Shown here: positions 5,751 to 38,841 of the stretch, piece by piece | Position numbering within the stretch: position 1 is the stretch's first letter | Layout of the letters: every line of letters starts with the position of its first letter | Assembly (NCBI GenBank): GCA_963555775.3 | Contig: CAUVWY020000009.1 | Span: 940,598-980,597, forward strand | Reading direction: 5' to 3' | Length of the DNA stretch: 40,000 nucleotides | Source: Terriglobia bacterium | Lineage (GTDB): Bacteria; Acidobacteriota; Terriglobia; 20CM-2-55-15 | Translations under genes and position numbers: made by a program | The notes under the pieces: generated by a model | The model's input: the letters and a program-made list of their open reading frames with translations, nothing else | Told to the model about the DNA's origin: nothing | Databases searched by the model: none

Positions 5751-7157
<1,407 letters not shown>

Positions 7158-11363: not shown

Positions 11364-12332
11364 GTGCACAGTTATGAGTGGATTGGGGACATCATAGTGC
11401 CGCTATTAATCATTAACTGTACGAACCGAAAACGCGTCAAAGCCAGCGCTGATCTTGACGCCAAGACTTTAAGTCCAGGGTCTCCGTACGAGGTGGCTCA
11501 AGAATGGCGAACCCGCGTATCTCAAACGGTCGGACGACATTGTGCCAACTATTTGTATTGCGGTCGTAGCTTCTCGGAAAGCGTTGTTGCCAGTAAGCGC
11601 CTGAATGCTGATCTCTGGATCGTGTCTGCGGGGATGGGATTAATTTCGGCTGACGACATGATCCCCGCTTACAACCTTTCTGTGTCCAACAAGATGTGCT
11701 CTCCAGGTGCACATATGAGCGGTTCCTGGGACCCCACACTTTGGTGGGAAGATGCCAATAAGATATGGTCACCGACGCGATCAATCAGCAAGTTGATTTC
11801 CGATAACTCGACGAGTCTTGCAATAGTTGGTTTATCGGGCCCTTACCTCGATATGGTTCACCACGATTTGCAGCAAATAACCCCGACCGAACGTGACAGG
11901 GTCCGCTTAATCGTGCATCCCGCCAATCGAAACGCAGTACCTGCGCTCGACCGCAACATCATGCCCTACGATGAAAGGCTTGATGGGCCTGACAGTTCGT
12001 TTCGTGGCACACGGAATGACTTTGTCGCCCGTGCCGCAAATCATTTCTGCTCCCTGTTGGTCAACAACTGTGACCGTTCCGTCAACTATCACCGAGATCT
12101 TGTGGCGCGAAGCTTGAGCACGCTTCAGCACACACAACGTATTCGAAGAGAACAACGAAATGACACCGAAATTGTCCAGTTAATCATTCGCAACTGGGCC
12201 GATGCGCACGGTCGATCGGGCCGTATGCTTAGAATTCTCAGGGACAAAGAGGCCGTCTCATGCGAACAGAACCGATTCAGGCGACTGTTCCATACAGCCG
12301 CAAACGAAATCACGATTCAGGAACAACAATGA
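11364..12332 (+). CDS. Unknown protein, first gene of the 7-deazaguanine module (DUF6884-like N-terminal pattern; possible DpdC-position protein)
   Basis: It is translationally coupled (ATGA) to the next gene. The N-terminal pattern LLIINCTNRK...ANYLYCGRSF...LWIVSAGMGLISADDMIPAYNLS resembles small conserved domains of the C-x-x-x-K / LY.G..F / SA..GL / P.Y type. The start is uncertain: GTG 11364 or GTG 11395. Confidence 0.55.
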   Translation: MHSYEWIGDIIVPLLIINCTNRKRVKASADLDAKTLSPGSPYEVAQEWRTRVSQTVGRHCANYLYCGRSFSESVVASKRLNADLWIVSAGMGLISADDMIPAYNLSVSNKMCSPGAHMSGSWDPTLWWEDANKIWSPTRSISKLISDNSTSLAIVGLSGPYLDMVHHDLQQITPTERDRVRLIVHPANRNAVPALDRNIMPYDERLDGPDSSFRGTRNDFVARAANHFCSLLVNNCDRSVNYHRDLVARSLSTLQHTQRIRREQRNDTEIVQLIIRNWADAHGRSGRMLRILRDKEAVSCEQNRFRRLFHTAANEITIQEQQ

Positions 12333-12725
12333 CGCAAGAAACACTGACCATCCGCGCTCTGAAAACAAGTCAAGGTGACGGCGCAGATGTCTATTCCTTT
12401 TTTGCGCCTGGGCGTGACATTGTGCGGATCGCCGATATTTCCCGCCTGGAACGCGACGAGGATGAAGACTTAAGGGGATTTCAGCGCAAAGACATCAAGA
12501 ACCACATCAAAAACATCGTCGAATATCTCAATCAAGGGAACGTCCTTTTTCCGAATGCGATCATCTTGGCATTCACACGAGAGATTCAGTTCAAACAATC
12601 GCGCGGGCCGAACCAGAGGAATCTGACTGATGTGGCGTCCATGGGAACATTAAGCATCCCAATCCGAGAAGAGGGCGACAGGGCCGCCTGGGTGGTCGAT
12701 GGTCAGCAACGGTCGCTTGCTCTAG

Positions 12726-14579: not shown

Positions 14580-15310
14580 CTAGAGCAATCAGATAATTCC
14601 GGCATCCCGGTTCCTGTAGTCGGTTTCATTTGTGAGGATCTGCAAACACAGCGCGAGCAGTTCATCCTGGTAAACAAAGCGAGACCCTTGCCTCGCCGCC
14701 TTATCAACGAACTTCTTCCCGAAACCGGTGTCCTCCTTCCGCGCGATTTAGCTGTCAGAAAGATACCAAGCAAACTATGCCACCTTTTGAACCGCGACCC
14801 GCAGTCGCCGTTTTATCGATTGATTAAGCGAATGTCTGACGCAAACTAATCCGCTGCCGTTATCGTCGATTCTGCGATCATAGACATGATCAAACACAGC
14901 ATTAACAATCCACTCGGAGCGCTGTCCCCTTACAAAGGGACACGGAACGGCAACGCTGAAATCGATTCGATGTACCGCGTTACATGCGGTTTCTGGTCGG
15001 CAATGAGGGACGTTTTTGCGGACGCGTGGGGTAAAGACCCGCGCGAAAGCCGGTTGATGCACTCGGCTGGGATTCAAGCCGCAGGCGTACTGATGGACCG
15101 TATCACTGCGCGACTAGGATCTTATGACGAGAGCACGTCTAAGAAATTCAAGCGCGATTTAGAGTGCATGGCACCGTATTGCCATTGGACTAGTGGTACT
15201 TGGGAGGGCCTTGGTCTCGAATGGAACGAGATTCAGAGTATCCCGCGACACATTCGCGGATTGGCCGACGAACTGGTACGGATCTATAACCAGACTACTC
15301 GCTCTTGACT

Positions 15311-16585
15311 ATGGAGTTTATCTACGCAGACAGCCTGGACTACGTCGATCCCAATTTTGATTTTGAAACGGATTCAAGTAGCCCTGGACGCGAGCGCTAC
15401 TGGGACGACAAATTCGCTCATGAAATCCTGGAGTGTGCGCCGTATGACGGGATTTTAGTCTCGCGTGGGGTAGTTGGAGATCACCGATTCCCAGGAAAGT
15501 ATTCTGAGGCACAGGCACATAGGTTCAGACGTGTCGGTGCACGCGCATTTCTTCGCTTCAATGGCGAGAAAAACCGCGATAAGAAGATCTTCGGTGATTG
15601 CGGTGCGTTTTCGTACCACAAAATGGACAGCCCGCCGTATTCGCCAGAAGAGATCATCGAATTTTACGAAGATGGGAAGTTCACGCATGGTTGCTCGATA
15701 GACCACATTATCTTCGAGTTCAATCGCGACAACTCGGCTACTCCGTCAGAGAACGCCCGGAAGCGGTCGAGGATAACAATCGACTTTGCCGAAAGGTTTA
15801 TCGACGTGTGGCGGCAAAGGGGTTCTCGATTCGTGCCTATCGGTATCGTTCAGGGTTGGTCGCCCAAGAGCATGGGCGATGCTGCGGAATCCTTGGTGAA
15901 ACTTGGTTATGACTATCTCGCACTCGGAGGTATGGTCCCACTGAATGCCCGATCCATCCATCTTTGTCTTGCAGAAGTGCGTGCCAGAATTCCGAGCAAG
16001 GTCCGAATCCATCTTCTCGGTTTTGCCAAAGCGGAACAAATCACCGAATTCACAAACTACGGGATCACCAGTTTTGACTCGACCTCACCCTTACTCCGAG
16101 CCTTCAAAGATTCCAACCGCAATTACTATGTCAATAGTGGCGCTGGCGGCCTGGAATATTTTTACGCAATCCGCGTTCCACAGGCTCTTGAGAATGTTGG
16201 GGTTAAGCGCCTAGTAAGAGAAGGACTCGTCAAGCAAGATGAACTCGTTCGATTGGAGGCGTCCGCTCTTCGGACACTGCGCAGCTTCGACCGCGGTGAA
16301 AGCGATCTAGACGATGCGATCAATGCCTTGTTCCATTATCAGAGGAAACTTTCGACCGCGAAGGATGACAGCGCGAAAGTCGAACGAAGTATTGCGCAAT
16401 TGATGGAGCGCTATCGGAAATCTCTAGCAGCAGCACCATGGAAAAATTGCCCATGCCGGATCTGCAGGACTTCTGGAATTGAAGTGATCATCTTCAGAGC
16501 AAGCAACCGGAACAAGCGCCGCGGGATCCATAATCTGCAGTCGTTCTATAAGTTAGTGACCGAATTGGAGCGACCAGAAAAATGA
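15311..16585 (+). CDS. dpdA: DpdA-like DNA-guanine transglycosylase (tRNA-guanine transglycosylase superfamily)
   Basis: TGT-like elements are present: FGDCGAFSY, LALGGMVP, GITSFDSTSP (equivalent to the catalytic GxDxFD region) and a C-terminal zinc site CPCRIC...H. The context includes queC/D/E and DGQHR genes. An alternative TTG start at 15305 overlaps the upstream stop. Confidence 0.8.
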   Translation: MEFIYADSLDYVDPNFDFETDSSSPGRERYWDDKFAHEILECAPYDGILVSRGVVGDHRFPGKYSEAQAHRFRRVGARAFLRFNGEKNRDKKIFGDCGAFSYHKMDSPPYSPEEIIEFYEDGKFTHGCSIDHIIFEFNRDNSATPSENARKRSRITIDFAERFIDVWRQRGSRFVPIGIVQGWSPKSMGDAAESLVKLGYDYLALGGMVPLNARSIHLCLAEVRARIPSKVRIHLLGFAKAEQITEFTNYGITSFDSTSPLLRAFKDSNRNYYVNSGAGGLEYFYAIRVPQALENVGVKRLVREGLVKQDELVRLEASALRTLRSFDRGESDLDDAINALFHYQRKLSTAKDDSAKVERSIAQLMERYRKSLAAAPWKNCPCRICRTSGIEVIIFRASNRNKRRGIHNLQSFYKLVTELERPEK

Positions 16586-17670
16586 CCAAGATATTGCAAT
16601 TTATTGGGGTTATTGCGAACCAATCGAAACAGCACACCGTTGTTTCGTTTCCCGCGCTGGCAAACGAACTGCACAAAATTGCGGACATTCACCGGGCCGG
16701 TCGAAGAGTTAGTGGTGTGCTGGAGGGCTTCCAACGCCCACGGATTGCCAATCACATAAAGGAGATCCGGACTTATCTACTGCAACCGGACGCGATCCTT
16801 CCAAACTCGATTGTCATCGCATTTTCCGACGGGGTCACGGTAGAAAAGGTGGCGCGTCGTATCGCGATTGTCTCGGTTGACTGTGAAAAGGGTCCGCCTG
16901 GCCTCATCGTTGATGGCCAGCAGCGCCTACACGCACTGACGAGTTCGGGCCGTGATGATTTTGAAATTTTTGTGTCAGCATTTATTGCCAATAGTGAAGA
17001 CGAGTTGCGCGCGCAATTCATTCTGATAAACAACACCAGACCGCTGCCGAAATCGCTTATTTACGAGTTATTACCGACGGTGTCTGGCCTGCCTTCCTCG
17101 ATGAAAAGTCGGTCGTTTGCGTCCAAACTAGCCGGTCGATTGAATTTTGAAACAGAGTCGTCGCTCTTTGGGCAAATCTGCATGCATACCAGCCCTGAGG
17201 GGATCATTAAGGACACGTCGATACACAGGGTCATCATGAATTCCGCTAGTGATGGGGCGCTTAGAGAACTCAAACATAGTGAGGATTTCGAAGACCGAGC
17301 ATTCAACCTGATCAGCAATTTCTATCAGGCGGTGCAAAACAGCTTCCCACAAGCGTGGAGAAATCAAACTCCAAGAACCTCACGACTTGTCCACGGTGCT
17401 GGCATCATAGCGATGGGTTACGTTATGGAATACCTCTACGCCCGAGATTCCGCCTGTGAAATAGACGAATTCGAACGCGGCATATCACCCCTGATTGATT
17501 GCACTGCATGGACGGCCGGGAACTGGAACTTTCCAGACGGGGAGTGCCGACCGTGGAACGGTATTCAAAATGTCGGACGGGAGATCCTTAAGCTGACCGA
17601 TTATCTCCTGCGCGTTCTCAGAAACGCACCGGCATCAACGGCCGTTGTGCCCATGCGGGTCTTCAAGTGA
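16582..17670 (+). CDS. DGQHR-domain (DndB/DpdB-like) protein, paralog 2, apparently intact
   Basis: ATGA overlap with dpdA. Motifs: [39 protein letters not shown] and [20 protein letters not shown]. Confidence 0.85.
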
Positions 17671-18380
17671 GTCTTCCATCATCGAATAAGGCCCTGGTGC
17701 TTTTTTCCGGAGGTCAGGATTCCACCACGTGCCTGGCGTGGGCGTTAACCCGGTTCGACGATGTCTACACCATTGGGTTCAATTATGGTCAGCGGCACGC
17801 GGTCGAACTTGAGTGTCGCACCAGGATACTGGAGCAAATTCCGGCCGTTTCCGACTGGGTGGGTTCGATCAAGGGGGACCACTTGGCACGCCTTGATTTC
17901 CTCCCGGCACTCGGAGATTCCGCCTTAACATCGAAACGAAAGATAGAGATAGCGGCATCCGGTTTGCCGGCGACGTTCGTACCCGGGCGCAATATATTCT
18001 TCCTGACTGCCGCCGCTGCGCTTGCCTACCGGTTGGAGATTCGACACATTGTTGGGGGAATGTGCGAAACCGATTTTTCTGGTTATCCAGACTGTCGGGA
18101 TGACGCAATTAAGAGTCTTCAAGTAGCACTTAACATCGGGATGGAAAGCAGGTTCGTGCTTGAGACGCCCTTGATGTGGATAGACAAAGCCGAAACTTGG
18201 GAACTTGCCCACCAGATTGGTGGCGAACCACTGATCGACATCATTCGAAGAGATACGCACACGTGTTACTTAGGCGATCGGACAATAGAACATGAGTGGG
18301 GATTCGGATGCGCAACCTGTCCGGCATGCGACCTACGCCGCAATGGTTATTTAGCTTTTCGCAAAAGAACCTTAACCTGA
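17667..18380 (+). CDS. queC: 7-cyano-7-deazaguanine (preQ0) synthase QueC
   Basis: GTGA overlap with the upstream gene. It has the PP-loop [12 protein letters not shown] and the C-terminal zinc cluster CYLG...[11 protein letters not shown]. Confidence 0.9.
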
Positions 18381-18393
18381 GAGGTGATGAGCG

Positions 18394-19482
18394 TTGGATG
18401 CATCGTATTACCAAATAGCCTGCAGCCGATTCGAGGGCGCGCGCGCCGTGCGGATACTGCCCCAAACTCATCCATCTTACCGTTTGCACGGCCACAGCTT
18501 CGTCGCCAAGACCAGAAAGAAGTTGAAGGACAGCGACATCGCGGGGGGGAGCGCAATTCTGGACGAAGAGCAGTTGTTCTTGGAAAAACTCACAAGCCAG
18601 CTTAATTACCGCTACATCAATGAAATCATAGATATACCAACTGATGAGAACATCGCAAGATGGCTTTTTAAAGGAATAGATTCGGACAGGCTCGATCTCG
18701 CTGGCATTCAAAGCACCCCGAGCCAAGGAGTCGATCTCGATTCATCCGGGAACGCTCATCTTTGGCGAAAGTTCCGCTTCGAAGCCGCTCACCAGTTACC
18801 CAACGTTCGGCCAGAGCACAAGTGTGGCCGTATGCATGGTCATGGATTCGAAGTCATTATCCACGCTATCCAAGATATTTCGAGCCAGCAGATGGGCATG
18901 GACTACGACCTGATAGCAACCCACTGGGAATCTGTAAGAAAGCAGATCTCAAACAAATGCTTGAACGATATCCCTGGCCTCGAAAATCCTACCAGTGAGA
19001 CCATCGCACGTTGGATATGGGGGCAACTAAAGGACGAACTGCCAGATTTGTCGTGGGTCACCGTTTTCGAGACAGCCATGGCCGGATGTCATTTTGACGG
19101 TTCGAGCTACAACGTCTGGAAAGAATTTCACTTCGAATCCGCAGTTTCCCAGATGACACACGGAAACAGGTCCCTTTCCTTATTTGGGCATAGTTATAAG
19201 ATGCGCTTGCATTGTTCTGGTCCTTTCGATGAACACCTTGGATGGGCCATTGACTATGGAGATATCAAGGACGCGTTCGGCCCGGTGTACACGATATTAG
19301 ATCACCACAATCTGGATGAGATTGCAGGCTTGAATGCAGGATCTCCATTGGAGTTCCTGCAGTGGATTTGGACGAAGACATCATCGGAACTACCGATTCT
19401 GGTGCGGATCGATCTCTTCGAGACACCCGAGCGTGGTGTTGTCTGCACAGGGGGTTTGGATTCCCCGGCACTGCCAACGTAG
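18394..19482 (+). CDS. queD: Tri-modular 6-carboxytetrahydropterin synthase (QueD/PTPS) homolog
   Basis: TTG start lies 9 nt after GAGG. The product has three modules of about 115-120 aa. Module 2 (aa ~122-236) has the full RFEAAHQLP...HKCGRMHGHGF signature. Module 1 has THPSYRLHGHSF and module 3 has HFESA...LSLFGHSY; both lack the Cys. Each module ends with the ...IARWIW...V.V.ET-type strand pattern. Confidence 0.8.
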   Translation: MDASYYQIACSRFEGARAVRILPQTHPSYRLHGHSFVAKTRKKLKDSDIAGGSAILDEEQLFLEKLTSQLNYRYINEIIDIPTDENIARWLFKGIDSDRLDLAGIQSTPSQGVDLDSSGNAHLWRKFRFEAAHQLPNVRPEHKCGRMHGHGFEVIIHAIQDISSQQMGMDYDLIATHWESVRKQISNKCLNDIPGLENPTSETIARWIWGQLKDELPDLSWVTVFETAMAGCHFDGSSYNVWKEFHFESAVSQMTHGNRSLSLFGHSYKMRLHCSGPFDEHLGWAIDYGDIKDAFGPVYTILDHHNLDEIAGLNAGSPLEFLQWIWTKTSSELPILVRIDLFETPERGVVCTGGLDSPALPT

Positions 19483-19494
19483 CTGTGGCTCCAC

Positions 19495-20136
19495 ATGACA
19501 TATTCGGTAAAGGAAATATTCCCGACGTTACAGGGTGAAGGTGCGCAGTCAGGACGGGCAGCCGTGTTTTTAAGGTTTAGCGGTTGCAATCTATGGAGTG
19601 GTTTGGAGCGTGATCGTTCGACCGCAATCTGCAGGTTCTGTGATACGGATTTTGTGGGTGCTGATGGCCCCGGGGGCGGCAATTTTCCAACTGCAGAGTC
19701 CCTCGCGGTCCGGATCGAAAACTGCTGGGTAAGCCAGGCTGGGAAAGAAGGACCCCGATTTGTCGTATTTACAGGCGGAGAACCTGCCCTGCAGGTTGAT
19801 GACGGCTTGATTGCAAACCTTCATGCGCTTGAATTCGAAATTGCAATAGAGACGAATGGCACTTTATCCATACCAGATGCCGTTGATTGGGTGTGTGTCA
19901 GTCCAAAAGCCGGTGCGCAGTTGAAGATTGAGACGGGCAATGAACTAAAAGTTGTGTTCCCACAAAGAGGGATGAATATGGAGGCCCTGTCGGCTCTCGA
20001 TTTCCAACACTATTATGTTCAGCCAATGGATGGTCCCAGGATCGAACAAAACACCAAAGCGGCCATCGCTTATTGTCGTAAGCACCCGCAATGGCGCCTT
20101 TCAGTTCAGTCGCACAAATATCTAGGTATTCCCTGA
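19495..20136 (+). CDS. queE: 7-carboxy-7-deazaguanine synthase QueE (radical SAM)
   Basis: EIFPTLQGEGAQSGRAAVFLRFSGCNLWSGLERDRSTAICRFCDTDF gives a CX14CX2C cluster-binding motif. The length of 213 aa fits the short QueE type. Confidence 0.9.
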   Translation: MTYSVKEIFPTLQGEGAQSGRAAVFLRFSGCNLWSGLERDRSTAICRFCDTDFVGADGPGGGNFPTAESLAVRIENCWVSQAGKEGPRFVVFTGGEPALQVDDGLIANLHALEFEIAIETNGTLSIPDAVDWVCVSPKAGAQLKIETGNELKVVFPQRGMNMEALSALDFQHYYVQPMDGPRIEQNTKAAIAYCRKHPQWRLSVQSHKYLGIP

Positions 20137-20383: not shown

Positions 20384-22630
20384 TCAGGTCGGCACGACCT
20401 GCAAGCGTTCACGCAACGCTGCGACCAAACTGGCGCTGCCTTGGCCTCTAGCGTACAGAGTGCACGCACCGCTTGGCCTGTGAGACTCGATGAATGCCGT
20501 CGCACTGTGTTTTGCTGCCGCCGTTGCGATGACGAACACGTCGGATGTGGCGGACGCACCTCTTAGAGCCGGCGAGCCGCCCACGTGATCATGGAATATG
20601 TTGACCCGGACTCCAGGGCACAGTTCCCGCACGACTAGCGCGGCGCGGCGAAGCGCGGACTCTTGTAATGAGTACAGAGCCACTTTCTTTCCATCCAAGG
20701 TGTCCCACTCCGACGGGAGTTGAGGTCTATCCTGTACCGGTTCTGGCTGGGTAACAGCTTCGGCCACACCGAGTTCTTCAGCCAGGTGTTGCAGGAGAAC
20801 GATGTCTGCCCTGTCGACACGTCGGTACCAGCGTCGAAAGAGCCCCGCAATCGCAACGACGAACCCCTGTCTCTCAGAGGGCGCGGGACAGGCTGCGTTC
20901 ACAACGATCTCGACCGCCTCGAGTGCGATCGTGGCAACGGACGGTGTCTCGACGGCGTTGATCGCGGATGACAGTTGCCCAAGAAGTTCGCGGTAGTCAG
21001 CAATTGTAACGCCCAACTGGAGCCTCACATCGACGACCTTCAAGAGCACGCTGACCTGAGGCAGCGACACCTGGTCGTCGACCGCGATTACGAAGAAGAG
21101 GCTCTCGAATACCACCTTCAGCCTCGGATCTAGTCCACTGCGCAAGCAAAACGTTAGAAAATAGGGCAGTGCGTCCCTAAGCGCCTCCTGGCCCCAACTC
21201 GCTCGATCGCGGAGGAGGAGATCCGCCACCTTTTGAACCGCCAACGGATCTCTGGCGAACTTGTCGACACTCCACTCTCGAGAGGCTATCTCCGCGACTG
21301 ACACAGCGGATGACCACGATTCTGGCAGCGTCAGACGTGTTAGCCACATCGCCCATGTCGTCGGTAGTTCCACGACGTCAGAATCTGTCACGGCAGCAGC
21401 ACTGAGTTGTTTTAAAGAACCGACAATACGCCCGAGAACCGCGTTGTGCGCCAGCCGTGATCGCCCGTCCACTGACAGACCTTCGACGGATTCCAGTGCG
21501 ACCTGAGCGGCTGACAGCGTTTCCATATCTCGCGCGCAACGAATCAAGAGTGCAGTTCGCTCAAAAGATGGTGGGAGGACGGCAACAAGGCTATAGGCGC
21601 GATCAATGTCAGCCTCGCCAAAGGCCGCACGCGCCTCCGCGAGAGGGTCACCTTCGGGCAGACCGACCTGCGCCTCCTCGAGGGCGGCGAGCATAGTCAG
21701 ATATTCACGATGCGAAGAACCCGGTGGGTATCGCTCAAGGACCGCTTCCGCAGCGACTAGCCTTGCTGGTGCCGACGCAAGGGCAGCCAGCAGAAAACTG
21801 ACGTCCACTTCATAACCTGAGAGACCCGCGCGCGATCGATACAGATCGCGGAAGCGCGGGAGAATGTCCGAGCGGAAGTAGCCGATGGCGTCCGCAGCAT
21901 CACGTCCAACTTCGAATTCCTGGAGGCACGAGCGGTACACGGCGCCGATCAAGGCCTCAGTTACCCGCCGCGGACGTGGCATTGCGATCAAAGCATCAAG
22001 TTCCGGAAGGGCCAGGATCGCGTCCCCGTAGCCGCCGACCGCGAGACATCGTACCTCAAGGAATAGAAGATTTGCCGCGCCAAGGTGGCCTGACGAACGC
22101 AATTCATCGATCAATCCGCGCGCAGCGGTTTCGTCGCGCATAAGCAACGCGTACTCGAAATCACGAAGAACTCTGCCGACTGCGCGTAGTCGACGTGCGT
22201 GCCTTGCGGGACGTTCGCCACGTAGCCGGATCAGGAGACGGAGGCGCTCCCGAGCAATATCAAGGATGGCGTGTTCCGAAACGTCAAGTCGGAAGGCATT
22301 GCTTCCGCATCGGGCCAGTACTGATGCCTCGACGCTGTCATTTTGATCGAGACGCTCAAACTGGTTACTTGAATCGCAGTAGCTCGGCCCAAGAAACGCC
22401 CGCACCTCGTCGCGGGCGTTTCGCGCAGCACGCGGAGACGAACAGAGTATGTACCACTGCACTTGTCCACTGTCCCGCACGCGAGGGAGCACGAGAACCT
22501 CTGGATTACGCCGCAGGTCATCGAGGAACGGATCGAGCCTGTCCTGCACGTCGCGTGGAAGTGAACCTGCCTGAATCGCATCCCAGCGCAGACGATTGCC
22601 TGGGCCGAAGAACGTCTCTTCGAAGGTCAC
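20384..22630 (-). CDS. Unknown 748-aa protein, last gene of the helicase/PLD operon (C-terminal DUF2325-like region)
   Basis: 4-nt overlap with the PLD gene. The C-terminus KKVALYSLQE...VNIFHDHVGG...DVFVIATAAAKHSATAFI resembles the DUF2325-type pattern. The rest is helical and Arg/Leu/Ala-rich with no motif I can name. Confidence 0.65.
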   Translation of the reverse strand: MTFEETFFGPGNRLRWDAIQAGSLPRDVQDRLDPFLDDLRRNPEVLVLPRVRDSGQVQWYILCSSPRAARNARDEVRAFLGPSYCDSSNQFERLDQNDSVEASVLARCGSNAFRLDVSEHAILDIARERLRLLIRLRGERPARHARRLRAVGRVLRDFEYALLMRDETAARGLIDELRSSGHLGAANLLFLEVRCLAVGGYGDAILALPELDALIAMPRPRRVTEALIGAVYRSCLQEFEVGRDAADAIGYFRSDILPRFRDLYRSRAGLSGYEVDVSFLLAALASAPARLVAAEAVLERYPPGSSHREYLTMLAALEEAQVGLPEGDPLAEARAAFGEADIDRAYSLVAVLPPSFERTALLIRCARDMETLSAAQVALESVEGLSVDGRSRLAHNAVLGRIVGSLKQLSAAAVTDSDVVELPTTWAMWLTRLTLPESWSSAVSVAEIASREWSVDKFARDPLAVQKVADLLLRDRASWGQEALRDALPYFLTFCLRSGLDPRLKVVFESLFFVIAVDDQVSLPQVSVLLKVVDVRLQLGVTIADYRELLGQLSSAINAVETPSVATIALEAVEIVVNAACPAPSERQGFVVAIAGLFRRWYRRVDRADIVLLQHLAEELGVAEAVTQPEPVQDRPQLPSEWDTLDGKKVALYSLQESALRRAALVVRELCPGVRVNIFHDHVGGSPALRGASATSDVFVIATAAAKHSATAFIESHRPSGACTLYARGQGSASLVAALRERLQVVPT

Positions 22631-23145
22631 GCCACACCCCCATATTCCTTCCGAAAGGCGAGTCGCAGTTGCTCGACGCTACCGCGCTCATTCTGGAAGA
22701 CAAGCATTTCCGTGAGGCGCTCCAGTCCGTTGAATGTCAGGTTCATTGAACCGAGCAGCGAGTACCGGTCACCGACAATACCCTTGGCATGCAGTTCCGA
22801 ACGCTCATGGAAGATCACTGCTTCCGGTCTACCCACGGCCTGGAGTCCATCCAGGACCTGGCGATTACCCGCATCTGCTCGCGCCGCGATCACGACAGTC
22901 GTCCCTCGGTCGACAAGTTCTCGAAGCACGCGGCTTAGACGCACCTCCGCGCGAGGAAAGTCCGGGCAGAGAGACAGAAACGACCCGGTGCTGTTGTCGA
23001 GGACGGGGATGTCGCGCAGCCACGGCGACACGATCCAAAGGCAGCGGCTCGGCATCAAGAGTTCTGACGCGAAGATGAGTTGCAGCAATTCCTGAGCGGA
23101 CTTTCTTGCGTCAACCGCGGTTTGCAGGAACTGGCGCGTTGTCAC
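22627..23145 (-). CDS. Single-HKD phospholipase D-family nuclease (DpdK-like / Nuc-like)
   Basis: HAKGIVGDRYSLLGSMNLTFNG contains H-x-K-x4-D-x6-GSxN. The product is 172 aa and has 4-nt overlaps with both neighbouring genes. Confidence 0.8.
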   Translation of the reverse strand: MTTRQFLQTAVDARKSAQELLQLIFASELLMPSRCLWIVSPWLRDIPVLDNSTGSFLSLCPDFPRAEVRLSRVLRELVDRGTTVVIAARADAGNRQVLDGLQAVGRPEAVIFHERSELHAKGIVGDRYSLLGSMNLTFNGLERLTEMLVFQNERGSVEQLRLAFRKEYGGVA

Positions 23146-24181
23146 TGAAAGGCCTCTGGCAATTCAACTGCGGCCTTGAAGCGGCCGCCGTCACGGCGAA
23201 TCCCGGTCACGCGTGCGTGAACAAGAATGGCCTCTGAGTCAACCGGTTCTGCGCCGATTCGCAGCAATGCGTCCGCGAGTTGTCCGCCGTTGTCGGCAGC
23301 GGCGACAAGTTCGGCCGATCCATCTTCAAGTAGGACGCGCGCGAGTTCGTCGAACCAGTTGGCATTGGAAACAGCGATTTGCCGTACCGACCACGAGACT
23401 GCAGCTATTACGAGCAGTCGATCAGACTCTGGGAGTCGTTCAAATGGGTTCCATGCACGTAGCGATTCTGCTCGGATCTGTGCTCCACGAGGCCAGAACA
23501 TGCTGTATAGAACGCCGAAGCGCCACGCACGGCGTGCACTCTCGGAATCACCCGCCGGCGTCACGCCGAGCGCCCGCTCCAAAGTTGCATCCGAACTCTT
23601 GACTAGAGCAAAGACCCGAGCGTCAATTTCGACATTGAGTGCGACTTCCGCAGCCTGCCATTCGCGTGCTAGCGCCGCAGCAAAGCAGTCCATGTTTCCG
23701 CTCGTTCCAGATCCCAGCAAGCGTGTATTGACCGACACCATGAGCGTTGTGGTCGGCTGGATGTCACGGCGGGCGAGTTCACTCCGCAGGGCCGTTTGCG
23801 CACGGAGGCCCTCTCTGTGGGACGTTGCGACACGGACTGCACTGAACGCGTTCACCAAAGAGGAGTGTTCTGGTCTCGCCGAAGACACCATGTCCAGGAT
23901 GCGGGCGAGTTCGTCACCGATGGCCTCCAAATCAGAACCACTGAGCACGTCGTCTAATAGTCGGCAATATCTTCTCGGGTCCTCCACATACCGCGCAAAA
24001 AACTCCTCGACAAATCCGCCGCCACCGATCGTCGTCTCCGTGATCCACAACTCGTCCACGTGTTCACCCGCCTCTGCGTCTTGAGCATTCTCGCGATTGA
24101 CGTACGCGTTCAGATCCAATGCAAGAGCCCCTGGGTCCATTCGAGGACACAGATTGTGAGCTCCTTCGACGAGCGCAGATC

Positions 24182-24311
24182 CTAGCAGCCTGTCGGACTT
24201 TCGGCGTAAGTCCTTTGTTTTCAACAACGGCCCTTTTTAGCCCGAAACGGTAAACACAGTCATATGAATGACTTAGGTTTTTGATTCGGTGTTAGTCCGA
24301 CAGGCTGCTAG
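24182..24311. mobile_element. MITE-like element, copy 2, inserted inside the large helicase gene
   Basis: Same 130-bp sequence as 7205-7334, with CTAG at both ends. It supplies the premature stop (LAACRTNTESKT*) of ORF 24273-25685 and the false start MLKTKDLRRKSDRL of ORF 23142-24227. Confidence 0.85.
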
Positions 24312-25699
24312 CGTCGACTTGAATCGGGCTCGTAACCATACCTCCCAATTTTCATCAATCGGTGACCAGAGGACGTGCGCAGCCTGATGGAGTGCGTCTC
24401 TCGTTGCCGGCAAATCGAGCAAATCTGCGAGCTCCTGTAAGCGGCGCGGCAGATCTTGGTCATCCGTGTCGTTCAGGTCGGATCCGTTCCATTGAAGGAT
24501 CGTTTCCAGCACTTCTTTAATCGTCGTCCTGGATGTTTTTCGATTTACTGCGCCTTCAGCCGACTCCAGGTCAAGCTCTGTTCGCAAGGCTTCGGCCGTG
24601 ACCGTTGACAGATAGGTCTGCGACAGCCAATCTCGCTGAAACGTGTTTGATATACCATCCAAGGCCGGCGAGTCGCGAATGAGGTCTCGAAAGCGTGCCG
24701 TCCGGAGTCCGCGTACAAGACGACCATCGCCCATGCAGAGTTCGTGCAACCGTTCGGGATAGGCGAACTTGACCTGTATTCCATCGACATCTGCTGCGAA
24801 GCCCACTGCGGCAGGCTGCTCGCCTACCTCGGTGGCGTAGACAAATCGTAACGAATAGACAGTCTGTGGCTGCCGCCCACGGCCGACGGAAGCCGTTGCC
24901 CCCATTGAGAAGCGCCGAAGTTCGACTGGCAAACCCAATTGGTGCGTGTGCACCCACATTGCTAGAAGAACCGACTGCCAGACGGATCCGTGCGGAAGAT
25001 CGATCTCATGACCAACGGCTGTTGGAATGATCTCCGAGCGCCATTCAGGAAAGGAGTTCGACGACTGCTGGACATCAAGTGGCGTTTGGTCGACATCAAT
25101 CGCGAACGGACGAAATACGGGAATCTCGCGTTCCTGTCCATCGGGCTCGACGTAATGGGAGTACCCGAGGTCAAGACGGTCACCCGCCGGACAAAAGTCG
25201 TCGACAGAAACGCGATCTCCGTCCCCCGGGGCGATCCAATGGCGTTGACCGCCGGTGGACACGCCAAAGCGCCGAGAAACACGGCCCGGAGAAAACTCAC
25301 GTAGCGCCTGCGCGATCGGCATCAATTCGGTCCGCGGTTCGCCCCGGCCGTATGCTGGGAGGCGAACGGCGACATCCGGCACCTGTAAATCGCTGAAGAG
25401 CGTCCGAGGAAGGAACTCCGGTAGAGGCGCTCTTGGAGTGTGCGGCTCAAGTGCAGGGCTGGAGGCCCGTCTCCAGCCTCGCTCGAGTCGGCGGAGCAAA
25501 GTGGGGACCGCTTCCGTCATGAGAGCGCGAGGAGGTTCCCACATGACGGCACTGACCTCATCCGGATCGATAGCGAGCGAGCGAGCGATAAATCCGGCGA
25601 ACTCATCCCGAACAGAGCTTTCCTCAAGCAGCGTCGTCAAATACTGGACGTATAGCGCTTGACGCTCTCCCACATCGCGTGACACTTGGCCGTTCTTAA

Positions 25700-27643
25700 T
25701 CTGAAGTTCCCCCGCCAGTATGGACGTATCTAGCTGAGAAATAAGAACAAATCAGGATATGGAAATGTCGGCTACTGGGAACGTCTTGATCAGTTCGGCA
25801 GCGCGCCGTTGCAGAGGGGTGGGTTCGGTGAGGCGTTCGAGAGGCGGGCCGTCGGGATCGGTTTGGAGTCGGCAGGCGCACCGGCATTGGGTCGCCAACT
25901 CGGCGAGCAGGGTGGACATGCTGTGCAAGGGCAAACCGTCATCGGTCCGGCGGCGGTTCTTCTTGGCCTTCGCCGTGTCGGACGCCTGGGCGGGCAAGAC
26001 GGGATCGCGCGTGGCGCGTTGCAGGTCGAGTTCTTCGTCGTGGAACAGCAACGGCGCGAGCGCCTGGCGCAGGTGCCATTCGACGTAGTAGGCGAGCATG
26101 CACAGGAAGATATGGGCGCGCACACGCGACTCGGTGCGATGGTATATGGGCCGTATCCGCAAGTCCACGGTCTTCAGGGACCGAAAGGCGCGTTCGACGC
26201 GGGCGAGGTTCTTGTAGCCGCGGACCACTGCGGCGGCGTCCAGTCGCGTGGCCGGTTCGCTGGTGCGGACGACGTAGTACCCGTCCAGGGCCGCTTCGCG
26301 TTCAATGGCGGCGGTCTTGCGCTGGTAGGTGAAGCGGTGGTCTTCAATGACGGTTTCGAAGTGCTTGGCCATCTTGAAGCGGTTCTGCGCGCGCCCGACT
26401 TTCTCGGCAATGGCGGTCGCGGTCAGCGGCGTCCGGGTCCGCCGCGCCACCTGGCGCTGGATCTTGCCGAACGCCTCTTCGGTGGCCGTGAGCAGCGCGT
26501 CGCGTTTGCGCCGGCGGCGCTCGGCCAGTACCGGGTTGTGGCAGACCACGAGCCGCTCGTCCGGGTACGCCGCGACGGTGATTTCGGCCAGGTTCCGCGC
26601 ATCGAACAACGACGTTTGCACCGCGCCCTGCTCGAACAACCGGCGAATGTCGGTATGCCGCAACGCCGAAATCCAGCCTAACCCCGGGTGCTGTTTGAGA
26701 TGGTCGATCTGCGTCTGCGTCAGCATGCCGCGATCGCCCACCAGCACCACCCGTTCGAGACCGAAGCGATCGCGCAGTTTCGCCACCTGGTCCGGAACCG
26801 TGTTCGGATCGGCCGTGTTGCCCTCATAGGCCTGTATGGCCACCGGCCGCCCCGCCGCATCGGTCATCAACCCATAGACCACGATGGGCCGTCCCCGCTT
26901 GCCGTCGCGGCTGTAACCGAACTGGGCCAGGGCACAGGCGCGCCCTTCGTAATAGCTGCTGCTGACGTCATAGAGCACGTGCCCGCTGTCGGTCAGATGC
27001 CGCGCGGCCAGCCGCCGTTCAATCCGCTCCTGACGCTCCAGCACCCAGTCCATGGCGTCGTAGAGATCGTCCTCATCGGCGTTGTCGAGCGCCAATTCCT
27101 GAGCCAGCGTGGTGGTGTGCCACAGCCGCGTGGCGGCGAGCTTGGACGTGGGCGCCAGGAGGCGCTGGACCAGCATCGCCAGCACCAGGTCGCGCGGCCG
27201 GGACCGTTTGCGGTCGAGCACGGCCGGCAGGTCGAGACGGCGCAGCAGGTGCAGGATCAGTGCGACATGGCCGTGCGGCAGCGTACGGTCGATGGTGAAG
27301 GCCTCCTCGGGGTGGACCAGGGGTTGGTCCTTGAGCAGTTGGCGGAGGCGGGCGACTTTCGGCGCGGGCCAATGGGAGAGATTGGCGATGGTGCGTTTGT
27401 GGACGCGATGGCCTTCGCGCCAGCCTTCCCGCAGCAGGACGGCGGGTGGCGAGTTGCGGTTGGGAACAGTTTCAACGTACATGGGAACATAATGTACGTG
27501 AAATAGCTGATTAATGCAACACCACAATGAGCAAAAAGATTCTCATACATGGGAACATCTGGCGCTTTTCTGCCGAGGCATAATGCTCCCTAATTCAAGA
27601 CGTTAGGGTGCGTTTTCGACCAAAATGCCGGGGGAACTTCAGC
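25700..27643 (-). mobile_element. IS1634-family (IS4 superfamily) insertion sequence, about 1.94 kb
   Basis: Imperfect 18-bp inverted repeats are TCTGAAGTTCCCCCGCCA (25700-25717) and TGCCGGGGGAACTTCAGC (27626-27643). It is flanked by a TTAA (or TTAATCT) direct repeat at 25696 and 27644. It contains one transposase gene. Confidence 0.85.
25752..27482 (-). CDS. IS1634 family transposase
   Basis: MYVETVPNRNSPPAVLLREGWREGHRVHKRTIANLSHWP... is the characteristic N-terminus of IS1634-type transposases. I prefer the ATG at 27482 over the listed start at 27527. Confidence 0.9.
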   Translation of the reverse strand: MYVETVPNRNSPPAVLLREGWREGHRVHKRTIANLSHWPAPKVARLRQLLKDQPLVHPEEAFTIDRTLPHGHVALILHLLRRLDLPAVLDRKRSRPRDLVLAMLVQRLLAPTSKLAATRLWHTTTLAQELALDNADEDDLYDAMDWVLERQERIERRLAARHLTDSGHVLYDVSSSYYEGRACALAQFGYSRDGKRGRPIVVYGLMTDAAGRPVAIQAYEGNTADPNTVPDQVAKLRDRFGLERVVLVGDRGMLTQTQIDHLKQHPGLGWISALRHTDIRRLFEQGAVQTSLFDARNLAEITVAAYPDERLVVCHNPVLAERRRRKRDALLTATEEAFGKIQRQVARRTRTPLTATAIAEKVGRAQNRFKMAKHFETVIEDHRFTYQRKTAAIEREAALDGYYVVRTSEPATRLDAAAVVRGYKNLARVERAFRSLKTVDLRIRPIYHRTESRVRAHIFLCMLAYYVEWHLRQALAPLLFHDEELDLQRATRDPVLPAQASDTAKAKKNRRRTDDGLPLHSMSTLLAELATQCRCACRLQTDPDGPPLERLTEPTPLQRRAAELIKTFPVADISIS

Positions 27644-29819
27644 TTAATCTCCGCGGCAGGCTGTGAGAAATCGACCCAAGGATCCGGTGAATAGCTCACC
27701 GGTAACCGGCGCGCCAGCCAATCGCAGAGCACATATGTTGCTTGCATGCGAAGGACGGCCCTGTTCTTTAGCGGCAAGTGACGGGGCGGTAGATTTGGCG
27801 AGAACAACTGATCATAGCCTTGGTAGGCGCTTCGGTCGCGGCCGTAGTCGGATAGAGTGACCACGGTCCACGGCCTCATTTCTTGGCGGCGACCCGCGCG
27901 ACCCTTTCGTTGGAGGAACGCCGCGGCACTATGTGGCGCTTTATGTTGAAGCACGGCACCCACTTCAGGGTCATCGAACCCAACCTCGAGAGCCGCCGTG
28001 GCCACAACAATATCCGCATCCGCATCCACGCCGGTATCTTGTGAGCTTGTGCGTCCGACCCGCACACGACTTCTAGGCGCTAGTACATGCCCGATTTCCT
28101 CGACAAGAGCCCAGTTCTGTCCGCATTCGAGTCGCTCCCGGGCGTTCGGTAGCGTAGTCCCTCGAAGATTCGCCAGCGACCCGCCCACGCGAACCGGGTT
28201 CGGTCGACGGCCAAACCAATCCCACCCCTCGGCATCAAGGAGATTGTGATAAAGCCGGTTAATGACATCCAGATTGTCCGTGAACGTAAAGACGCGGCTG
28301 CCAGAGTAGTCGTCGTGTCGCGATCCCAGAATTCTTCGCAAGAGCATCAGCGATTGAATCGTCGTTGAAAGTAGACTCGTTCCCGAAGATGGATCGCCTC
28401 GTAGCGCAAGCATGTAGTCGGCGCCGTGCGCCTCGAACTCGTTGACCTCTGGCGCGACTTCTCCCACGTCTCCAGGGCCTAACCCTGTCAGATCCCCAAA
28501 GAATCGCGGCGCATCCGCAAGCGTGGCTGACAGGCCGACGAAATGCGGTCGTGCACCAGACGCGCGTCTCCAACGTCGCATTAAGAGAGCTACGTGAGCG
28601 CCATGCACACCTTCGTAGGCGTGAACTTCATCTATGAGTACAAAGTCCGGACGTCGCTCTGGCCTCACCCCGATGCCAAACAGTGGTGCGAATTGTCGCG
28701 ACGACAATCGCTGGTTCAGCATTTCGGTGGAGGTGAAGAGGATATCCGGGGGTTCAGCGAGCATCCGTTGCCGCGTGAGGCGGATCTCATCTGGTTCCAC
28801 CTGGTCACCGCAACGGGTATCAGTGCAGAGCAACCGTTCAAGGCCGATCTGGACGTCACCCTCCATCCATGCCATGTTCGCACCGCAACTCGGACACCGA
28901 ACAAATGGGCACTCATAAGCCGTCTGCCCTCCGAGCGACACGCGCCGCCATGCAGTACCGCGGCTTGGCGTCATGACGTTGCGGGAAGCGTGTGGAACAT
29001 CGCCGTAGAGTGCACCGATGACCAACCGCCGCCGCCCGCGGTCGACTAGTGCCGGAGTCGCCCGCCTTGCGTTCGCGAGAGCCTCGCGAAGTTGATCTTT
29101 TAGGAGTTCGTTTCGGGGATAGAGCGCGAGGCACTTTGTCCAATACGCTGCGGATAGCCGTTCTGCGATCGCAGCGTAGGCCGGAAGATAGAACGCGAGC
29201 GTCTTGCCGCTTCCTGTTCCCGCGGAGATCACCGTTCCAAGAGACCGGTCACTGCCCACCGCACGAAGAATTCGCTCTGTCGCGCGAGCTTGAAAGCGGG
29301 CCAGCGGCCGCTCTATGGCTGCGCCACCCTGTACGAGAGCATTGATGACGCTTTCCTGCAGCGCCGAGACATGAGTCTGTTGTCGCAGATCCTGCAAGAG
29401 GGTGGTTGGTGCGAGGTCCCGCCGTGGGTACAGTCGTGGCCGAACGAAAAACCGATAGTCGGCAACAAGATTCGGTGCGGTCCGCCAGGCAGCGTTCTTA
29501 GGGTCTGGAAATATTTGCTTCAGGCGCGCAAATAGCCGCACGGCTTCGGCCATGCGTGTTCGGTAACGCTGGGTGTCTGGCACTCTCCACAAAAGTTTGA
29601 GGTCGAGCAACGTCTCAATGAGACTCCAACCTGAATCGTGAACGCTTTCAATGCCCTTGCTCGCAAGCGCGGACAGATATTCATCCGCAAGTTGCTCTAT
29701 TTCAGTTTCTGAGAAAAAGCCGTCTATGAGCCCCCAGGAGAGAACGCCTGCCTCAGAGCGTTCAAGCTGGCCGAGGAATTCCAGGGCGTGTGCATCGTCA
29801 GCCATCGCGTGTCGCATTC

Positions 29820-36193: not shown

Positions 36194-36817
36194 TCATGAC
36201 TGCAACCTAGCAAGGAGATCCTCTATCGACAGATGCTTTACTACATCGAGCAGGAGCCTTTGCGGTTGCGCCGGGTCCGGAGTGCTCCGGGGAACGACAA
36301 TAATGTGACGCGGGCGGTGGACAATCATTACTCTTTTCAGCGCCCCTAGGGCCAGACACCGCTCCCCCAGCAGTGTGAGTCTCGGCACGGGCGCCGCAGG
36401 GGCCATGCGACTATCCAAGTCCGCTGTCGCGCGAATCACAAATCGAAGTGGCGCCCGAGACGTCAGTTGCGACCATTCACGACTGGAAAGACTCCCATCG
36501 GGGAGTGCTAGTTCCGTGATGCCATCATGACTTAGGTTTTTTACCGGTGTAGTCCGACAGGCTGCTAGTTCCGTGATGCCATCAGCTACCGAGTAACGAA
36601 GAAGGCTGAGCAGACGCTCCCGCCATTGTCTCATCTCCCTGAAAGCATCACCGAACACCTCTTCGTATGACACCCAAGCCCGGCCTACTTCGTCTGAGCA
36701 GGGAGCCAGAGCACGCTCGAAGGTCGCTGATAGTACAGCAGCGGTATTGGTGATCGTGGTCACCTCGGGCTCTGGAGACCGCAAACCCACCGCATTTTTT
36801 GTCTTGTAGTCGGGCAA
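36194..36817 (-). CDS. Unknown 207-aa ORF (possibly the frameshifted C-terminal part of the RecQ-like gene) containing a 57-bp MITE-derived in-frame insertion
   Basis: It has a TTG start, a 58-nt out-of-frame overlap with the RecQ-like ORF, and a 4-nt overlap with the downstream gene. The peptide DGITEL occurs twice, 19 aa apart, because of the duplication and insertion at 36508-36584. Confidence 0.5.
   Translation of the reverse strand: MPDYKTKNAVGLRSPEPEVTTITNTAAVLSATFERALAPCSDEVGRAWVSYEEVFGDAFREMRQWRERLLSLLRYSVADGITELAACRTTPVKNLSHDGITELALPDGSLSSREWSQLTSRAPLRFVIRATADLDSRMAPAAPVPRLTLLGERCLALGALKRVMIVHRPRHIIVVPRSTPDPAQPQRLLLDVVKHLSIEDLLARLQS
36528..36568. mobile_element. Partial, diverged MITE end (37 bp + CTAG)
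   Basis: TGACTTAGGTTTTTTACCGGTGTAGTCCGACAGGCTG+CTAG corresponds to the right end of the 130-bp element (TGACTTAGGTTTTTGATTCGGTGTTAGTCCGACAGGCTG+CTAG). It is bracketed by a 20-bp direct repeat, CTAGTTCCGTGATGCCATCA, at 36508-36527 and 36565-36584. Confidence 0.7.
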
Positions 36818-38841
36818 CTTCCCGCGAATATCGGCGGGATTACGATCGGGTTTTCCAGGGTGTAGGCCTGACGAAAGATCTCATTCAGGGGGCGCCGTAC
36901 ATCGCGGAGTTCCTTGACTGATTTGAGTCCCTCCTCGTCGGCAGAACGAAGCGTCGCCCTCGCATGAGCCACAACGTCATCCCAATGGGCCTTGTCCGAG
37001 TGGCGCGTATCACGAATCCGTACTGCCACCTCTCGCGCGAACCGCTCCAATATTGGTCGCCGCCGCTTCTCGAACCTCTCGTCGCTTTCATCGTCCAACC
37101 GATCAATCACCGGCGGCGGATGTGCCGCAAAACTGATCAGGCCGGCCTGTGCCATAAGAACGAGGGTCCGCAGATTCCACGACGCGTTTAGCTCTCCCAC
37201 GTCAGCGATGTCGGCCGGCCTATCATCCAGTGAAAGGATGTACGTGTCGTCACTGGTCCGATGGTGCCGGACCCACATTGCATCCCATCGTTCAAATGCC
37301 CGGTCGATGCTAATCAGCCGTTCCTTGCCCAATGCCACGGCGGTGGCAACGTCTGAACGCGTAATCACGATGAGAGCAACTGCGGCCCGTCCATCGCGAC
37401 CGGCCCGTCCAACCTCCTGATAGTAGCGATCGATAGTCTCCGGTAAACAAGCGTGTACGACAGATCTGACTTCTTGCTGATCCATACCAAGGCCGAACGC
37501 CGATGTAGCGACGACAATGTCGACTGCGGAACCTCGCCAGTCCCGTAACACGTCGTCACCGCCCAAAGCCGCGAGATCGCCTCCACGCACAAGCCGGGTA
37601 CGACGCAATCCGCTGTTCTGCAGGCACGCATACCAATGTGCAGCGCGCTCACGAAGTGTTGTGTAAAGGATGAGCGGTCGCGGGAGGTGCCACATAGCTT
37701 CAAGGATGCGGGTCGAACGTTCGTCTTCTTCATCCACCGCGTGAATCAGGAAGCCCGGTTCGGGACGGAGTTCCGGTTCTGATACAACTTGGCAGCCCCC
37801 ATTGCCGAACAATTGCCGCAACGTTTCGCAGCATTCTGAGGTGAGCGTCGCAGTCAGAAGAAGTGTCCGGAATCTTGCCGCCGGTGGGCAAACGGCCAGC
37901 AAGGCATCTTTGAGCCCTGCAATGCTCTGAAACTCTGGTCGGAACTGCTGGCCCCATTGCGTCACGATGTGAGCCTCATCGATCGCAAAGACACGCAGAC
38001 GCCCTTCACGTGCGGTCTCGAAAAGAGGTCCACGCAGGGCTCCCATTACCGCCTCTGCCGAAGCGAACACAATTGGAAGGCTACCGTCACGTATCCCCGC
38101 CCTAATGGCGTTCTTCGAGTCGGCGTCGAGGCCGCCGTGATAAGCACAGGTCACATCGGTTTGAGGTCGGCCCGTATCCAACTGTCCGGCGAGTTCACGA
38201 AAGCGTTCCTCCTGATCTTTCGCGAGTGCAGTCGTTGGGACGACAACGAGCGTCAGTCCGCCCTCGGATCCCCAGACGAGAGCGGGCAATTGGAAGGCAA
38301 GCGTCTTTCCTCCACCTGTTGGCAAGCTGACAATCGCTGTGGATCCAGCCGGCATGAGAAACGCTGCCTGCACAGCGGCCCGCTGGCCGCTCGAGACGTA
38401 CTCCGAATGGCCCGTGAATTCTGTTAGGAGTGGATCGTTCGGGACAGGGCGCGCTTGCCTGCGCAGAACCTCACCGATCGCTGCGTCCACTACGTCTGGC
38501 GCGCCAGGATCGAGCCATGAGGGCTCCCATCGTTGCGCGCGTACGACGTAATCTGCTCCCGCAACTCGCGCGTTGCAACTGAACTGTTTCCAGAGTTCTG
38601 CGGTCGGCCAATCCTCGCCGCGGGGAACGCGCAATTCTGCCTCTTCTCCGAACTCAAGTTGGCATCGTAGCATTCCCTGACGCAGAAGCCCGGCGATGTC
38701 AGCCCTCCCAGTCTTTCCTGATGCCGCAGGAATCCCTTGAAGGGCATCGCGGACTCGTGCCAGAAACCGGTCGCCGATCGGTATCGGAAACGGTTCGGCC
38801 GATAGAACAAGTCGCTGCAACTCGTGGATGTGCGCGATCAC
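36760..38841 (-). CDS. RecQ-like DEAD/DEAH-box helicase (DpdF-like)
   Basis: Helicase motifs: LPTGGGKTLAFQLPAL, FAIDEAHIVTQWGQQFRPEF, LTATL, and QEVGRAGRDG. GTGA start overlaps the upstream gene stop. Confidence 0.85.
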   Translation of the reverse strand: MIAHIHELQRLVLSAEPFPIPIGDRFLARVRDALQGIPAASGKTGRADIAGLLRQGMLRCQLEFGEEAELRVPRGEDWPTAELWKQFSCNARVAGADYVVRAQRWEPSWLDPGAPDVVDAAIGEVLRRQARPVPNDPLLTEFTGHSEYVSSGQRAAVQAAFLMPAGSTAIVSLPTGGGKTLAFQLPALVWGSEGGLTLVVVPTTALAKDQEERFRELAGQLDTGRPQTDVTCAYHGGLDADSKNAIRAGIRDGSLPIVFASAEAVMGALRGPLFETAREGRLRVFAIDEAHIVTQWGQQFRPEFQSIAGLKDALLAVCPPAARFRTLLLTATLTSECCETLRQLFGNGGCQVVSEPELRPEPGFLIHAVDEEDERSTRILEAMWHLPRPLILYTTLRERAAHWYACLQNSGLRRTRLVRGGDLAALGGDDVLRDWRGSAVDIVVATSAFGLGMDQQEVRSVVHACLPETIDRYYQEVGRAGRDGRAAVALIVITRSDVATAVALGKERLISIDRAFERWDAMWVRHHRTSDDTYILSLDDRPADIADVGELNASWNLRTLVLMAQAGLISFAAHPPPVIDRLDDESDERFEKRRRPILERFAREVAVRIRDTRHSDKAHWDDVVAHARATLRSADEEGLKSVKELRDVRRPLNEIFRQAYTLENPIVIPPIFAGSCPTTRQKMRWVCGLQSPR

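Follow-up and report, generated by a model that had tools for sequence, protein, structure and literature searches.

Probable inactivation of a dpdJ helicase gene by an IS1634-family element and a CTAG-targeting miniature element in a Dpd island of Terriglobia

In the Dpd (7-deazaguanine in DNA) modification/restriction system, dpdA to dpdC provide 7-deazaguanine (dPreQ0/dADG) modification and dpdD to dpdK collectively provide restriction, with individual roles unknown (PMC10164549, which cites Thiaville et al. 2016 for the dpdA-K island of Salmonella enterica serovar Montevideo). Dpd-type helicases of the YprA family carry a single zinc-binding insertion in the first RecA domain, and the C-terminal half is an OB/CON “canopy” in YprA helicases, with an ALBA-like domain in DpdJ; the DISARM system naturally encodes the helicase (DrmA) and the OB-CON-DUF1998 module (DrmB) in two genes (bioRxiv 10.1101/2025.09.15.676423). 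Here, we report a 40,000-nucleotide stretch of DNA from a Terriglobia bacterium (GCA_963555775.3, contig CAUVWY020000009.1, positions 940,598 to 980,597; hereafter, the window) in which dpdJ is almost certainly a pseudogene, interrupted by an IS1634-family insertion sequence (IS) and a CTAG-targeting miniature inverted-repeat transposable element (MITE) within a Dpd island that is decaying more widely.

Reconstruction and identity of dpdJ

Three open reading frames (ORFs) were listed on the minus strand, at 27595-29817 (740 amino acids, aa), 24273-25685 (470 aa), and 23142-24227 (361 aa), with a 591-aa ORF (25752-27527) between the first two. A first-pass annotation of the same DNA had read the three as one helicase gene with two insertions. 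In silico excision of 25703-27650 (1948 bp) and 24186-24311 (126 bp) gave the in-frame product that it had claimed, a single 1533-aa minus-strand ORF spanning 29817 to 23142 with a terminal stop only, in which PAAEIK is joined to NGQVSRDVGERQ (NGQVSRDV...) and RARFKSTL to GSALVEGAHNLC (GSALVEG...). The direct repeats lie where they had been placed, CTAG at 24182-24185 and 24308-24311 and TTAATCT at 25696-25702 and 27644-27650, the latter being part of a full 8-bp repeat, CTTAATCT, that starts at 25695 and 27643. One end of each listed ORF is encoded by mobile-element sequence, as had also been proposed: the last 15 aa of 27595-29817 (LKFPRHFGRKRTLTS) by the IS, and the last 11 aa of 24273-25685 (AACRTNTESKT) and the first 15 aa of 23142-24227 (MLKTKDLRRKSDRLL) by the MITE. 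The parts belonging to dpdJ, with their matched positions in the NCBIfam equivalog NF041067 (DpdJ), are as follows.

27643..29817, minus strand: dpdJ fragment 1 (aa 1-725), NF041067 1-696; MukF-like N-terminal region, superfamily-2 (SF2) core, and Cys cluster
24308..25700, minus strand: dpdJ fragment 2 (aa 726-1187), NF041067 702-1157; 99.7% nucleotide identity to related contig L001; the listed ORF begins at an internal GTG
23142..24185, minus strand: dpdJ fragment 3 (aa 1188-1533), NF041067 1145-1482; the listed ORF begins at a TTG within the MITE

The separate ORFs thus occupy consecutive segments of one model, against which the reconstruction scored 1632.3 bits (curated cut-off, 800 bits), with residues 15-1533 on model positions 1-1482 of 1482. 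The PADLOC DpdJ profile (PDLC02896) gave 1595 bits over model positions 7-1487 of 1487. Pfam DEAD and Helicase_C mark the SF2 core, which has a GTGSGKT Walker A motif (aa 200) together with DEVH (aa 396) and, further on, QRKGRAGR (aa 636). The first RecA domain has an inserted Cys cluster (aa 303-337), in agreement with the single zinc-binding insertion of Dpd-type YprA helicases. The gene stands beside that of the PLD nuclease DpdK, with dpdA, dpdB, and preQ0 synthesis genes near, and this synteny is kept in related contigs L001 and L002. Judged from these matches and this setting, the interrupted gene is dpdJ, which encodes the anti-phage, YprA-family SF2 helicase of the Dpd system; “helicase gene” was correct and too general a label.

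A search of 5.8 billion proteins returned 2664 matches, and the best 120 were inspected. Nearly all of these are 1505-1561 aa long with 98-100% query coverage, and at least 114 homologues of the 1533-aa product are 1450-1600 aa long, so the check for full-length relatives passed; partial matches to three gene families were not what was found, one model being matched end to end. The closest homologue, P0001 (1529 aa), covers 100% of the query at 99% identity; identity falls to 92% for P0002. The contigs bearing them (L001 and L002) have intact dpd clusters with conserved gene order, and dpdJ in each encodes one 1529-1530-aa protein. Alignments of both contigs to the window (blastn) break exactly at both inserts, with 8-bp and 5-bp overlaps matching the duplicated targets. 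Both sites equal the predicted empty site (...GCGGAGATTAAGAACGG... and ...GTCGACGCTAGGATCTGC..., also displayed as ...GCGGAGATTAAGAACGGCC... and ...GTCGACGCTAGGATCTGCGC...). Empty-site alleles are therefore present at both sites in related contigs, and the fusion is not due to chance, because L001 and L002 carry exactly the excised sequence. The reading of the three ORFs as one gene accordingly stands.

A sister contig (ENA ERZ28669063:ctg20870; L037/L038), retrieved by look-ups with the DpdK and DpdH products, was assembled separately and is 99.96% identical to the window where clean. It has both MITE junctions, the right junction of the IS1634-family element, and two further lesions described below (an IS3 insertion in dpdG and a deletion in dpdF), and it independently confirms that the dpdJ lesions are real. 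It is without a 57-bp insert found in dpdF of the window and has two extra IS3 copies, one in dpdJ near window position 28700 (duplication GTC) and one in dpdE. No record turned up in exact-product look-ups with the truncated forms of DpdJ (736 aa) and DpdF (693 aa). In L038, positions 12600-13400 mix dpdJ with IS1634 sequence and contain many indels; this stretch is probably a poorly polished long-read consensus and was unused as evidence.

The two insertions and their age

The insertions and a second copy of the MITE in the window are as follows.

25701..27642, minus strand: IS1634-family element, 1942 bp, with transposase ORF 25752-27527 (591 aa as listed), inverted repeats, and empty sites in relatives
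24186..24307, minus strand: MITE, 122 bp, with inverted repeats CAGCCTGTCGGAC, between CTAG at 24182-24185 and 24308-24311
7205..7334, plus strand: second MITE copy (122 bp plus CTAG each side), 130/130 identical to 24182-24311, with unrelated flanks

The IS1634 transposase was identified with NF033559 (342 bits; cut-off, 100) and Pfam DDE_Tnp_1. The terminal inverted repeats, CTGAAGTTCCCCCG(G/C)CA, match at 16/17 positions; if they are taken from CTGAAG, the element is 25701-27642 and the target duplication is 6 bp (CTTAAT, 25695-25700 and 27643-27648), or 8 bp counting an ambiguous CT. The element is absent from L001 and L002, in which the 6-8-bp target is present once. Insertion was after dpdJ codon 725, in a variable linker just past the helicase core; in a full-length alignment of 115 sequences, this linker is length variable in distant homologues and colinear in close ones. 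The left end of the element (CTGAAGTTCCCCCGGCATTTTGGT, 24 nt) had 0 matches in JGI metagenome contigs. The window has one copy, and the only other occurrence seen is at this locus in L037/L038.

The MITE was inserted after dpdJ codon 1187, at CTAG, and puts an in-frame TAA into the dpdJ frame. Its junction falls within the invariant motif RF(K/R)(S/T)TLG-AL(V/I)(E/D)AA, in which 0/115 aligned sequences are gapped. Its inverted repeats are perfect over 13 bp (17 bp counting CTAG), and its DNA is predicted to form a hairpin (-33.4 kcal/mol; z=-8.2). It is noncoding, 122 bp being too short to encode a transposase of any known length. A 25-nt MITE end was found at 34 further sites in about ten Terriglobia metagenome-assembled genomes, with otherwise unrelated flanks. 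Of these copies, 30 measure exactly 122 bp (exact-repeat search), 3 have a single mismatch in one repeat, and 1 is shortened (109 bp); CTAG is on both sides of 33/34, the exception being the 109-bp copy. Counted with the two in the window, 35/36 copies have CTAG on both sides and 32 are exactly 122 bp. Three copies in genome OZ253554.1 are 100% identical to those in the window, and the MITE is absent from L001 and L002. This distribution makes a Terriglobia (Acidobacteriota) bacterium the most likely host. No full-length parent was found among the 34 retrieved copies, and the three transposase-bearing elements of the window have ends unlike those of the MITE. No Rfam family matched 23000-30000 (E<=1), and the 126-bp insert was rejected on that basis as a known RNA element or intron. 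The second copy in the window is intergenic, with a GCV_T-domain gene on one side (5751-7151, minus strand) and a gene for a short-chain dehydrogenase on the other (7733-8506, plus strand).

These features are best explained by two independent transposition events that turned dpdJ into a pseudogene, each duplicating its target; since the target was duplicated, deleting an element with one repeat copy would restore the ancestral sequence exactly. The description “precisely reversible” thus holds in silico, and a working system would need several independent reversions. In vivo, precise excision needs recombination between repeats of 4-8 bp, which is rare, and no fewer than four lesions would have to be reversed; repair by recombination with an intact allele is more plausible. 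Translation of dpdJ would run 15 codons into the IS before stopping, and the product would be a truncated helicase of no more than 740 aa that would keep the N-terminal region and helicase core without the C-terminal half. Expression of dpdK and dpdD is probably reduced, because they appear translationally coupled to dpdJ by a GTGA overlap (dpdK start GTG on the dpdJ stop).

Beyond the two insertions, dpdJ has no further stop or frameshift in 4.6 kb. Polarized with L002 as an outgroup, window-branch substitutions in dpdJ are 9 synonymous and 8 nonsynonymous (neutral expectation, 74.5% nonsynonymous; P[<=8 of 17] = 0.014), a pattern that still looks like selection. The L001 branch itself has 4 synonymous and 7 nonsynonymous changes, so relaxed constraint is not evident in the window. 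The lesion-free frame, the substitution count, and the two identical MITE copies support recent inactivation of dpdJ, as had been suggested; the accompanying remark that no other lesions are visible holds inside dpdJ only, since dpdF, dpdG, and a dpdB paralogue are also disrupted. At aa 1194 (24162-24164), a few residues past the MITE junction, the window has Gly and 11 displayed homologues have Ala (VEGAHN versus VEAAHN), which may be a postinactivation substitution.

Identity to L001 is mosaic. When window 22627-29817 was compared with L001 10001-15105, dpdJ-dpdK was ~99.5% identical, dpdH and dpdI were ~92% identical, and the flanking dpdH, dpdI, and dpdD ranged from 92 to 96%. Synonymous differences are also lower in dpdJ-dpdK, which indicates a recent recombination block and not stronger constraint. 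Chimeric assembly at the repeats (99.7% identity to L001 between the inserts and ~95% outside) was considered and rejected: the stretch of high identity extends over the whole of dpdJ and dpdK, and recombination is favored because this stretch does not end at the insertions.

Gene content and other lesions of the island

The minus strand of the island carries dpdE (partial, at the window edge), dpdF, dpdG, dpdH, dpdI, dpdJ, dpdK, and dpdD, and the plus strand carries dpdC, a DpdB paralogue, dpdA, dpdB, queC, and queD-like and queE-like genes. The modification half (11364..20136) was assigned with PADLOC, Pfam, and NCBIfam. Genes other than dpdJ and the lesions among them are as follows.

11364-12332, plus strand: dpdC
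12726..14579, plus strand: IS1380-family element splitting the DpdB paralogue; NF033539, 279 bits; transposase 12799-14379; CTAG duplication (12722-14583 overall)
15305-16585, plus strand: dpdA
16582-17670, plus strand: dpdB
17667-18380, plus strand: queC
18394-19482, plus strand: queD-like gene
19495-20136, plus strand: queE-like gene
20384..22630, minus strand: dpdD; NF041061, 516 bits; PADLOC DpdD
22627..23145, minus strand: dpdK (PLD-family nuclease); NF041068, 168 bits (cut-off, 100); PADLOC DpdK
29820-30521, minus strand: dpdI, directly upstream of dpdJ; weak match (40 bits, below the cut-off of 150), syntenic with a 233-aa gene of L001 and L002
30518-33694, minus strand: dpdH, upstream of dpdJ; NF041065, 641 bits
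33879..35481, plus strand: IS3-family element, 1603 bp, in dpdG; orfA 33952-34440, orfB 34437-35441; 3-bp duplication CCC
36194..38841, minus strand: dpdF; NF041063 positions 19-670 of 813; aligned to L001 and L002

The IS3-family element (NF033516; Pfam rve and HTH_Tnp_1) leaves dpdG in two pieces (35482-36197 and 33695-33878) and is absent from L001 and L002; its ends were set from a second insertion in L038. It is currently active, because identical copies are inserted at two further L038 sites (dpdJ and dpdE). In dpdF, a 1-bp deletion near 36799 (ACAACAAAATG to ACAAAAAATG) causes a frameshift, leaving a 693-aa ORF versus 863 aa in L001 and L002. The deletion is probably real and not a random consensus error, because the same deletion is in L038. 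A 57-bp insert in dpdF (36505-36561), in frame and stop free, is absent from L001, L002, and L038; its first 38 bp (CAGCCTGTCGGACTACACCGGTAAAAAACCTAAGTCAT) look like the end of the MITE, and the remaining 19 bp (GATGGCATCACGGAACTAG) repeat the upstream flank. The insert may be an excision or abortive-insertion footprint. Two DpdB-like genes flank dpdA, of which the one broken in the window is intact in L002 (22389-23510; 470 bits as DpdB).

With dpdF, dpdG, and one dpdB paralogue also disrupted, the Dpd restriction function of this strain has most likely been lost; any persistence of modification would depend on the remaining dpdB being sufficient. The dpdJ insertions are part of ongoing decay of the island, driven by IS and MITE activity, in an IS-rich Terriglobia (Acidobacteriota) lineage, and the extra IS3 copies of the sister contig show that the island keeps gaining insertions, as expected once selection is gone. 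Several lineages have taken insertions in this island: the otherwise intact L001 carries an IS21-type element (Mu-transposase C-terminal domain and IstB; L001 17657-19968) between dpdD and queE. A claim that insertions are enriched in the restriction half was considered and is unjustified with only 6 events in 40 kb, of which the modification half has one.

The contigs can be ordered in stages: L001 and L002 intact; the window with IS1634, MITE, IS3, and IS1380 insertions and a frameshift; and the sister contig with two further IS3 copies. As a tentative and rather doubtful suggestion, this order would be a natural time series of the dismantling of a defense island by mobile elements, with the 57-bp dpdF insert as a footprint of imprecise MITE excision or abortive insertion. 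To our knowledge, such footprints have rarely been documented in bacteria. Adjoining the island (8795-10283) is an AbiEi antitoxin/AbiEii toxin pair (type IV toxin-antitoxin, abortive-infection type), which fits a defense-island setting.

Alternative readings and comparison with known systems

Continued function of the split gene as separate polypeptides, a reading suggested by analogy with DISARM DrmA/DrmB, is very unlikely. The IS does lie in the variable linker past the helicase core (aa 725), roughly where YprA-family helicases are split in DISARM (bioRxiv 10.1101/2025.09.15.676423), an ORF with a GTG or TTG start lies downstream of each insertion, and the pieces show no further decay; however, the second break is inside an invariant motif, so that three pieces must reassemble, the downstream pieces are without evident ribosome-binding sites and lie behind a 1.9-kb IS, dpdF and dpdG are broken as well, and a third dpdJ insertion in the sister strain is what would be expected without selection. 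A misjoin at repeats, placing the IS and MITE in an intact gene, would not create complete inverted repeats and perfect target-site duplications, and the MITE junctions and the right IS junction recur in a nonidentical, independently assembled contig; an assembly artifact is thus very unlikely, even though the source is probably a metagenome-assembled genome and related contig L038 is visibly noisy in places. That the ORFs are adjacent genes of different families with coincidental in-frame fusions, as the ORF list alone would allow by giving each of the three a start and a stop, is already refuted by the match of all three to consecutive segments of one equivalog model, by the end-to-end match of the fusion to that model, and by relatives that encode a single 1529-1530-aa protein from DNA equal to the fusion.

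Nothing contradicts the reading of dpdJ as a pseudogene, and a few points weigh against parts of it. From sequence, we infer that gene function and restriction are lost and that dpdK and dpdD suffer polarity. The mobility of the IS1634-family element rests on its structure and on empty sites, because its end was not found elsewhere. The left IS junction is uncheckable in the sister contig, that part of L038 being garbled. The substitution test counts 17 changes only, and recombination could disturb the outgroup polarization. Finally, the dpdF deletion could be a systematic sequencing error.

For annotation, the three ORFs should be merged as a dpdJ pseudogene and both inserts recorded as mobile elements; otherwise, a Dpd system that almost certainly does not work would be called as fragmented or “complete” by automated defense-system finders. 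The main value of the locus lies in this correct annotation and in a snapshot of defense-island loss across related strains, one more case of costly multigene defense islands lost via IS and MITE activity. The MITE represents an unnamed CTAG-targeting family, seemingly recently active in Terriglobia.

Some bacterial MITEs are derived from IS5- or IS630-type elements. The MITE here has the same short noncoding form, with perfect terminal inverted repeats, multiple copies in related genomes, and strong hairpin potential; it differs in having no autonomous parent among the retrieved copies, and its target duplication is CTAG or TA. The larger element resembles IS1634-family ISs (IS4-related DDE transposases) in its transposase model, inverted repeats, short target duplication, and length (~1.9 kb), and differs in being unnamed, with no second copy in the collections scanned save at the same locus of the sister contig. 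Weak PADLOC matches over the helicase core to Druantia DruE and DISARM DrmA (E values of 1e-10 to 1e-21) reflect shared YprA ancestry; these scores are far under the DpdJ score, and the context and architecture here are those of Dpd. Compared with the Dpd island of Salmonella enterica serovar Montevideo, the neighborhood is the same (dpdH-dpdI-dpdJ-dpdK with dpdD, dpdE-G, dpdA-C, and preQ0 synthesis genes), and DpdJ has in common the end-to-end equivalog match, as well as SF2 motifs and one Cys cluster inserted in the first RecA domain. In contrast to the Salmonella gene, dpdJ here is twice interrupted and presumably nonfunctional, the host belongs to Acidobacteriota (Terriglobia), and the island has two DpdB paralogues and dpdD after dpdK. 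All components are of known kinds, and the locus is a case of ordinary gene decay by jumping DNA with no new mechanism.

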